17,104 nt of DNA, taken from UHGV virus genome UHGV-0120250. One strand, 5' to 3'. Below are positions 5,288 through 5,420 of this stretch, in pieces. The stretch's first letter is position 1; the number at the start of each line of letters is the position of its first letter. Below the pieces are notes generated by a model. The model was given only the letters and a program-made list of their open reading frames with translations, was not told the origin of the DNA and made no database searches. Source of the DNA: a virus. Both the position numbers and the translations under genes were made by a program.

Positions 5288-5299
5288 ATAGACCTCCTG

Positions 5300-5405
5300 G
5301 TGAACTTTGGCGGTGAATACAGCCGGGCGACTAACTCCGGTAGCGTAATCATTGCAAAGCGCCTCCGCCGAGAAGGTTAGCTTCTGCATTCACCCCAAAG
5401 TTCAC
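5300..5405 (-). promoter_or_regulatory. long-range inverted repeat in the N leader abutting the N ribosome-binding site
   Basis: 5300..5317 (gtgaactttggcggtgaa) is the reverse complement of 5389..5405 with one bulged base; the proximal arm is immediately upstream of the N SD. Confidence 0.4.
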
Positions 5406-5420
5406 TTTGGTTATTGCGCT
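5406..5420 (-). promoter_or_regulatory. nutL boxB-like hairpin (GCGCUGACAAAGCGC)
   Basis: Perfect 5-bp stem with GACAA loop in the N leader between pL and N; a near-identical hairpin lies downstream of cro. No clear boxA (CGCTCTT) seen next to it. Confidence 0.5.

Follow-up and report, generated by a model that had tools for sequence, protein, structure and literature searches.

A lambda-type hairpin with an exchangeable interior in the H-19B-type N leader of a viral genome

The N gene and its leader

The 17,104-nucleotide (nt) stretch of DNA analysed here, virus genome UHGV-0120250 (referred to as a whole as the window), carries on its minus strand a gene for an N antiterminator of the H-19B/HK97/933W type, preceded by a PL promoter. 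The leader between promoter and gene contains an inverted repeat which ends just before the N ribosome-binding site and forms the base of a 106-nt hairpin on the PL transcript. This hairpin has the position and the basal sequence of the hairpin in the N leader of phage lambda and, by homology with the latter, may be cleaved by ribonuclease III (RNase III), with an effect on N.

The N gene and its leader are 98% identical at the DNA level to those of the Shiga-toxin (Stx) phage H-19B and related Stx phages, and the coding part also matches HK97, mEp234, HK106 and 933W-type phages. The N protein starts MTRRTQFKGNSRSRRRER... and possesses the N-terminal arginine-rich motif. This motif is numbered R12-R18 in experiments with H-19B N (PMC3526286), which fits a protein of 127 amino acids with its AUG at 5287. 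The -35 (TTGACA, 5527..5522) and -10 (GATACT, 5504..5499) hexamers of PL, with a 17-nt spacer, lie on the minus strand inside lambda-like OL operators, and their positions place the start of the transcript at approximately 5492, the A of AUCAGCAGG, as in lambda. The leader then consists, in this order, of a spacer hairpin, boxB, 10 unpaired bases, the long hairpin (5405..5300), a single base, AGGAGG and AUG:

5499..5527, minus: PL promoter, from a promoter scan; the sequence matches lambda PL and is annotated in the mEp234 and CL707 records
5435..5450, minus: nutL spacer hairpin GAUUCA-AAUA-UGAAUC, just upstream of boxB, in the minimum-energy and centroid folds
5416..5430, minus: nutL boxB hairpin GCGCUGACAAAGCGC (DNA GCGCTGACAAAGCGC), an exact match, annotated as nutL boxB in mEp234
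5395..5410, minus: local alternative hairpin CCAAAG-UGAA-CUUUGG, -5.3 kcal/mol, from folding
5384..5405, minus: 5' arm of the long-range helix, GUGAACUUUGGGGUGAAUGCAG, from folding, pair probabilities and covariation
5323..5383, minus: hairpin interior (“cassette A”), a 61-nt three-way junction, from folding and the alignment of relatives
5300..5322, minus: 3' arm of the helix, CUGUAUUCACC-G-CCAAAGUUCAC, with bulged G5311, from folding and pair probabilities
5285..5298, minus: N ribosome-binding site, with Shine-Dalgarno sequence AGGAGG (5298..5293) and AUG (5287..5285), from the sequence
4904..5287, minus: N antiterminator gene of the H-19B/HK97/933W type, 127 amino acids (PHROG 271, E = 9.5e-39)

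A long-range helix next to the ribosome-binding site

According to the original prediction, a 17-nt near-perfect inverted repeat adjoins the N Shine-Dalgarno sequence, and this repeat was found at the positions given for it. The arm 5405..5389 (GUGAACUUUGGGGUGAA) complements 5317..5300 (UUCACCGCCAAAGUUCAC), a G at 5311 being the only bulged base, and, as the Shine-Dalgarno sequence occupies 5298..5293, the helix ends 1 nt short of AGGAGG. The helix is even longer than had been proposed: on the PL transcript, 5405..5384 pairs with 5300..5322 to give 22 base pairs (bp) with one bulged G, enclosing 61 nt. Folding of the leader, which had been named as a check, has the two arms paired stably, with a probability (P) of 0.94-1.00 for each of the 22 pairs when the ensemble is computed for all 224 nt of the leader. 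By itself, the 106-nt hairpin has a folding energy of -48.3 kcal/mol, compared to -29.8 +/- 3.2 kcal/mol for shuffled sequences (z = -5.80), and the leader from 5270 to 5495 one of -75.6 kcal/mol (z = -4.08); in both cases, 0 of 200 shuffles were as good.

A boxB had also been proposed in this leader, at 5406..5420. Its sequence is indeed present, but these coordinates are wrong by 10 nt, and its actual position at 5416..5430 separates it from the 5' arm by 10 nt, AAUAACCAAA. The designation of this boxB as P22-type is correct, since the identical 15-mer is found in P22-like leaders, as well as in those of H-19B, HK97, 933W-type phages and mEp234. With the helix folded, the geometry at its base puts boxB at about 11 unpaired nt from the N Shine-Dalgarno sequence.

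The local hairpin at 5395..5410 uses the same CUUUGG as the long helix, and could form before the 3' arm is transcribed. At equilibrium its probability is about 0, given P>=0.99 for the long-range pairs that compete with it. As far as folding models indicate, it rivals the long helix kinetically only, and would be an accessory feature rather than a rival explanation. Counterparts of this local palindrome occur in lambda (CAAAGC..GCUUUG) and in P22 (CCAAAC..GUUUGG). Another pairing partner for the 3' arm was considered and rejected: GGCGGUGAAUA, upstream of boxB (5467..5457), perfectly complements UAUUCACCGCC in the distal half of the arm (5319..5309), at a probability of 0.0002, and this pairing is not kept in Oslo, HK97 or other cassettes. 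It was treated as a likely by-product of a shared GGUGAA motif. The GGCGGUGAAUA motif (5457..5467) resembles the operator half-site GGCGGUGA. An intrinsic terminator was also rejected, as the long helix is followed by CAGGAGG and not by a U run; the terminator scan gave no terminator-like site within the leader, the lone such site (5734..5713) being located upstream of PL.

Compensatory changes in the helix

Conservation of the helix was assessed with a sample of 20 annotated phage leaders, together with leaders on at least 120 contigs from a scan of IMG/VR with the 3' arm plus ribosome-binding site. For covariation, 36 distinct arm pairs (25 nt of the 5' arm and 26 nt of the 3' arm) were aligned without gaps, and a core of 19 pairs was scored. 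Standard pairs occupy 96.5% of the cells of this core, compared to 81.6% upon shuffling and 39-42% when the partner is slid by 1-3 columns. The covariation score of 0.438 compares with 0.146 for shuffled alignments (0 of 500 reach the observed value) and at most 0.119 for slid ones. Both sides have changed in 11 of the 19 pairs, in a total of 98 cells, and G-U or U-G pairs are found in about 65 of the 684 cells. The latter would be A-C mismatches on the other strand, which indicates that selection acts on the PL-sense RNA. For cassette A alone, RNAalifold gave 37 pairs, 10 of them with compensatory changes, mostly in the main stem.

At the base of the helix, CUUUGG pairs with CCAAA to form a clamp. 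Of 129 distinct leaders, folded in a context of 360 nt, 123 have this clamp in their minimum-energy structure, around enclosed spans of 24-218 nt. Among those whose fold lacks it are L073, a chance hit, and L079, a recombinant whose arms are mismatched. Compensatory change thus maintains the helix across leaders of the H-19B, lambda, P22 and CobraSix types.

Homology with the lambda leader

The lambda leader (J02459) folds into a hairpin with the base GGCUUUGGGGUGUGUG / CACACACC-A-CCAAAGC. The window and lambda have in common the core CUUUGGGGUG / CACC-(bulge)-CCAAAG, with the bulged base at the same place. In the window this clamp reads CUUUGG|GGUG / CACC-bulge-CCAAAG; P22-type leaders have it as well, and in the ungapped alignment of the arms the position of the bulge is identical in all leader types.

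The resemblance to the lambda hairpin (Steege 1987, Kameyama 1991, Wilson 1997 and 2002) extends to the order nutL - hairpin - N ribosome-binding site on the PL transcript, to overall size (106 nt in the window, about 120 nt in lambda), and to a similar predicted gain in accessibility of the ribosome-binding site after a cut (see below). The two leaders differ in several respects. Their interior sequences are unrelated, the gap between boxB and helix is 10 nt in the window as against 17 nt in lambda, the helix lies 1 nt rather than 8 nt from the Shine-Dalgarno sequence, and the N protein and boxB of the window are of another specificity (with a boxB of H-19B/P22 type). Taken together, the evidence indicates that the hairpin of the window is homologous, and not merely analogous, to that of lambda. 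The original prediction had suggested an analogue of the RNase III-processed lambda leader. The shared base, bulge and order, and the covariation, speak in favour of this suggestion, whereas cleavage and regulation in the window would follow from lambda by homology only. The element is a lambda-type N-leader hairpin in an H-19B-type leader, i.e. a control element of known kind that calls for no new mechanism.

P22-like phages and CobraSix

Cassette A is present in H-19B, Oslo, MG40, the P22-like phages BTP1, ST64T and SE1, and Enterobacter phage CobraSix. In BTP1, ST64T and SE1, where the interior cassette is about 80% identical to that of the window, and in CobraSix, the hairpin is again exactly 106 nt long, and its outer pairs differ from those of the window and covary. 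In the P22-type leader, the difference concerns the outer 5 bp of the helix base (GAUGG/CCAUU versus GUGAA/UUCAC). The leader of P22 gene 24, located by BLAST, has the identical boxB and a clamp of like geometry with a bulged A, its stem base being GAUUGGUUUGGACUGGCG / CGCCAGU-A-CCAAAGCCAUUUC, that is, GAUUGGUUUGG-ACUGGCG / CGCCAGU-A-CCAAAGCCAUUUC. P22 itself differs from the window in having another interior and a canonical boxA (CGCUCUUUA), which is absent at nutL of the window.

Infected cells accumulate a 96-nt RNA (“P22B”) derived from the leader hairpin of P22 gene 24; its 3' end is located 16 nt before the gene 24 start codon, and a fragment of this hairpin was found in vesicles (PMC13397905). 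By analogy, this accumulation lends modest support to processing in a homologue of the hairpin of the window.

Some relatives differ in the surroundings of the hairpin. In CobraSix (L014, 601-706; Cobrasixvirus), cassette A has co-adapted arms (GAAUGUUUUGG / CCUAAGCAUUU) and lies upstream of a hypothetical gene of 212 amino acids, with no obvious boxB upstream of the hairpin and with an annotated open reading frame (ORF) overlapping it on the opposite strand. In ST64T (L010, about 655-860), roughly 200 nt are inserted between the leader hairpin and gene 24, and in another relative (L068, about 6450-6590) a small ORF is inserted between boxB and a minimal clamp hairpin of 11 bp. The latter two cases show that the leader tolerates insertions on both sides of the clamp.

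An exchangeable interior

Alignment of the window and H-19B with mEp234 revealed identity up to ...CUUUGGGGUG and again from CACC(A/G)CCAAAGUUCA onwards, while the segment in between is wholly different in mEp234 and 37 nt longer. The interior of the hairpin is thus an exchangeable cassette, of 23-217 nt among the matches listed. At least 12 unrelated interiors were found in H-19B-type leaders (IMG/VR, L022-L141). Their self-complementary ends extend the helix, e.g. GGUGAAUGCAG/CUGUAUUCACC, GGUGUGGUG/CACCACACC, GAUGCGAUG/CAUCGCAUC, GAAAGCG/CGCUUUC and GAUUGGAUG/CAUCCAAUC, among others, and the bulged base, mostly A but G in the window and some others, is always found between the variable part and CCAAAG. 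A scan with the 3' arm of the lambda type (IMG/VR, L145-L264) yielded 112 usable leaders with 48 distinct interior sequences. Cassettes of the 121-nt, 217-nt, 132-nt and 64/65-nt types are common to H-19B- and lambda-type leaders. The shared clamp and shared cassettes indicate that the clamp is common to lambdoid N leaders, and that the interior assorts independently of N specificity.

A few of these interiors resemble tRNA. In three H-19B-type leaders (L074, L113 and L126), the only IMG/VR contigs to carry it, the interior is replaced by a tRNA-like element which scores 39.6 bits with the Rfam tRNA model (gathering score 29; E = 3.7e-7). The element (5715-5841 in L113) matches in its acceptor, D and T arms and has 70 inserted nt in place of the anticodon arm; ARAGORN calls it only if introns are permitted, namely as tRNA-Gly(tcc) with an intron of 51 nt. 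In a lambda-type leader (L185, 370-450, minus strand), an 82-nt tRNA-like gene sits exactly in the clamp (Rfam tRNA, 34.8 bits; ARAGORN, tRNA-Pro(agg) with a poor anticodon stem). In both types, the distal clamp helix is the acceptor stem, the conserved bulged A is at the discriminator position, and CCA starts CCAAAG. This coincidence suggests that the clamp may derive from, or mimic, the end of a pre-tRNA. The layout of acceptor stem, discriminator A and CCA is shared with pre-tRNAs and tRNA-like elements in mRNAs by a few related leaders, and the hairpin of the window itself differs in showing no tRNA signal with ARAGORN or with the Rfam tRNA model. More generally, a search of the window from 4500 to 9000 against Rfam (E<=1) gave no family and two chance-level hits only. 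The 132-nt cassette features a T-arm-like GGUUCGACUCC / GCUGGUUCGACUCCAGC next to the stem; it gave no Rfam match in L101 (E<=10) or L148 (gathering threshold), and no relaxed ARAGORN call of a tRNA or tmRNA.

It is possible, if doubtful, that the clamp is a universal “cassette holder”, perhaps of pre-tRNA origin, from which RNase III (or RNase P in the tRNA-like versions) excises freely swapped RNAs with functions of their own as trans-acting small RNAs, decoys or tRNA mimics, the 61-nt interior of the window included. Such an exchangeable and occasionally tRNA-like interior lies outside the textbook picture, and provides a natural experiment on what the hairpin requires.

Another reading would make the release of a functional RNA (a trans-acting small RNA, a decoy or a tRNA-like molecule) the main role of the clamp and control of N a secondary one, which appears unlikely. 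The number of unrelated interiors in H-19B- and lambda-type leaders, the exchange of cassettes between N types, the tRNA-like scores in some of them, and the P22 hairpin fragment that accumulates and is found in vesicles (PMC13397905) would all be expected of such a holder. So would the conservation of cassette A, whose interior is invariant in 47 of 61 columns, compared to 21 of 45 for its stem (p = 0.002; H-19B-, P22- and CobraSix-type leaders). However, common descent and recombination, instead of selection, could account for that conservation. No cassette has a known target or trans function, tRNA is the only Rfam family to match any of the cassettes tested, and the range of 23-217 nt fits a weak constraint on content.

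Possible control of N by RNase III

The distance from nutL to the N gene downstream is about 200 bp in lambda. There, N and Nus factors at NUTL act over some 200 nt to repress the translation of N, and the RNA between NUTL and N is highly structured (PMC5725501, citing Wilson 1997 and 2002); the lambda N leader is a target of RNase III (PMC5371410, citing Steege 1987). We consider it probable that the 106-nt hairpin of the window, with the inverted repeat as its base, is the homologue of the RNase III-sensitive lambda hairpin and serves to couple NUTL to the N ribosome-binding site and to uncouple the two. Cleavage of the lambda N leader by RNase III sets the amount of N and ties it to the growth state of the host; reportedly, following work by Steege in 1987 and Wilson in 2002, it relieves N autorepression and stimulates N translation. 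RNase III is expected to leave a 2-nt 3' overhang. The reported lambda cuts, when mapped on the lambda sequence, fall at CUUUGG^GG and CC^AAAG, inside the conserved core and with an overhang of this kind.

The sequence of events proposed for the window would be as follows. Transcription from PL would bring out nutL, with its spacer hairpin and boxB, and N would bind there. Closure of the 22-bp helix would then bring boxB near the Shine-Dalgarno sequence via the helix base and partly bury the landing site of the ribosome, and in this state the complex of N, NUTL and RNA polymerase could repress N translation, as in lambda. Host RNase III would cut near the base of the helix, by homology at CUUUGG^GG (5395/5394) and CC^AAAG (5309/5308), and thereby release the hairpin, part NUTL from the N message and free the ribosome-binding site. 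Since the cut would separate NUTL from the message, autorepression would be lost, and with both repression relieved and the ribosome-binding site freed, N synthesis would follow RNase III activity. An RNA of about 86 nt would be released, and the NUTL fragment would be left ending in the hairpin CCAAAG-UGAA-CUUUGG (-5.3 kcal/mol). As a thermodynamic proxy, opening of the N ribosome-binding site (-20..+12) is predicted to cost 14.5 kcal/mol in the intact leader and 7.1 kcal/mol after the homologous cut, compared to 11.7 and 5.0 kcal/mol in lambda.

Several points weigh against this proposal. The lambda cuts that serve as its model are reported positions, said to have been placed at +88/89 and +197/198 by Steege in 1987 and Wilson in 2002. 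The ends of P22B, an inner 5' end and a 3' end at the foot of the 3' arm, are unlike those of a clean RNase III product, and the tRNA-like interior of some relatives implies that other nucleases could process there. The anchor of the 5' arm was picked by best complementarity among a few candidate TTTGG sites, which slightly favours pairing in the covariation analysis. Finally, the literature search turned up no cleavage or expression data for this type of leader.

Other phage sites of RNase III action, such as those of lambda cIII and int sib and of T7 early mRNAs, also involve the host double-strand-specific nuclease acting on a long mRNA hairpin beside a ribosome-binding site (PMC5371410), but concern other genes and show no sequence relation to the hairpin of the window. 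In contrast to these sites, a cut in the window would also detach a transcription factor, bound to the RNA, from the message that encodes it. N is required before any other gene product in the lytic growth of lambdoid phages, among which are Shiga-toxin phages with this type of N (H-19B, 933W-like). If the same clamp operates here, the control known from lambda probably extends to Stx and P22-like phages, and precise cut sites can be named.

Other readings of the helix

The helix might instead act as a structural spacer only, which brings NUTL to the N ribosome-binding site for autorepression, or modulates ribosome access directly, without any cut by RNase III in this phage. This reading, which we regard as improbable, would account for the distance of about 11 unpaired nt between boxB and the Shine-Dalgarno sequence in the fold, for a helix closer to the Shine-Dalgarno sequence than in lambda (1 versus 8 nt), for the high energy, 14.5 kcal/mol, that it takes to open the ribosome-binding site while the leader is intact, and for the relative (L068) whose clamp is reduced to 11 bp around an 11-nt loop, a short stem for a substrate of RNase III. 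Nevertheless, the part conserved in sequence among leaders of the lambda, H-19B and P22 types is the CUUUGG|G / C-bulge-CCAAAG core, where the lambda cuts reportedly fall. A pure spacer needs no invariant core with a fixed bulge, and 22 bp, about two helical turns, is the usual length of an RNase III substrate.

A chance inverted repeat, or an element acting at the level of DNA such as a recombination boundary or a protein-binding palindrome, is very unlikely. The arms do flank the mosaic junction of the cassette exchange, and may in addition serve as recombination homology, but none of 200 shuffles folds as well, the covariation includes many strand-specific G-U pairs, and pairing falls to about 40% in the slid controls.

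Lastly, N could begin at the in-frame ATG at 5389..5387, so that the repeat would be incidental to a coding region, as the ORF list does contain a frame of 161 amino acids (4904..5389) and the MG40, phi419 and lambda records annotate N from an upstream ATG, but this is hardly credible given the strong AGGAGG 5 nt before the AUG at 5287, the fit of the arginine-rich motif numbering to the 127-residue protein (PMC3526286), a stop 42-75 nt before the AUG and no in-frame ATG in the N frame of most relatives, a frame shift by a 1-nt indel in H-19B itself, and compensatory changes that keep pairing and not codons. The extension from ATG 5389 was rejected in view of these upstream stops and because the longer ORF is not conserved.

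The GenBank records in question start N at an upstream in-frame ATG inside the leader hairpin, giving proteins of 133 amino acids in lambda (L021, J02459 35037..35438), 155 in MG40 (L004) and 166 in phi419 (L017). The ORF 4904..5389 of the window represents the same annotation trap.

The nut sites and neighbouring genes

The original prediction also noted a matching hairpin after cro and the lack of a clear boxA next to the nutL boxB, and both observations hold. The former belongs to nutR:

7759..7767, plus: nutR boxA, CGCTCTTTT
7774..7785, plus: nutR spacer hairpin GGAC-AUUC-GUCC
7790..7804, plus: nutR boxB, TCGCTGACAAAGCGA

The nutR boxB has 2 mismatches to that of nutL, with the closing pair swapped, and 0.06 such matches would be expected by chance. 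At nutL, no convincing boxA (resembling CGCUCUUUA) was found: the sole candidate, CGCACUACU at 5482..5474, fits the consensus poorly, although it is labelled “putative boxA” in the GenBank record of mEp234. H-19B N reportedly does not need boxA.

The spacer hairpin of nutL represents the dyad symmetry in the nut spacer of H-19B type, and H-19B nutR was reported to have two hairpins (PMC3526286). Like the H-19B NUT sites, nutL (5450..5435) and nutR (7774..7785) of the window each have a short hairpin between the boxA position and boxB. The H-19B spacer hairpin, said to have been called the “reducer” by Neely and Friedman in 2000, is located upstream of boxB and concerns antitermination, whereas the larger leader hairpin of the window lies downstream of boxB.

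The immunity region resembles those of CL707, HK97 and mEp234, with cI at 6737..7450, cro at 7551..7751 and the operators. The place of rexAB in lambda, between cI and PL, is taken by an ORF of 301 amino acids (5745..6650, minus strand) which encodes a BstA abortive-infection protein (PHROG 6287, E = 1.8e-132) and has the terminator-like hairpin (5734..5713) after it; phage CL707 carries this gene too, under the annotation “hypothetical”. A SieB-like superinfection exclusion gene (4306..4887, plus strand; PHROG 1301, E = 1.6e-121) is convergent with the end of N, as in P22-like phages. Two tRNA genes, for Asn(gtt) at 15409..15483 and Thr(tgt) at 15489..15564, are found on the plus strand, far from the N region.

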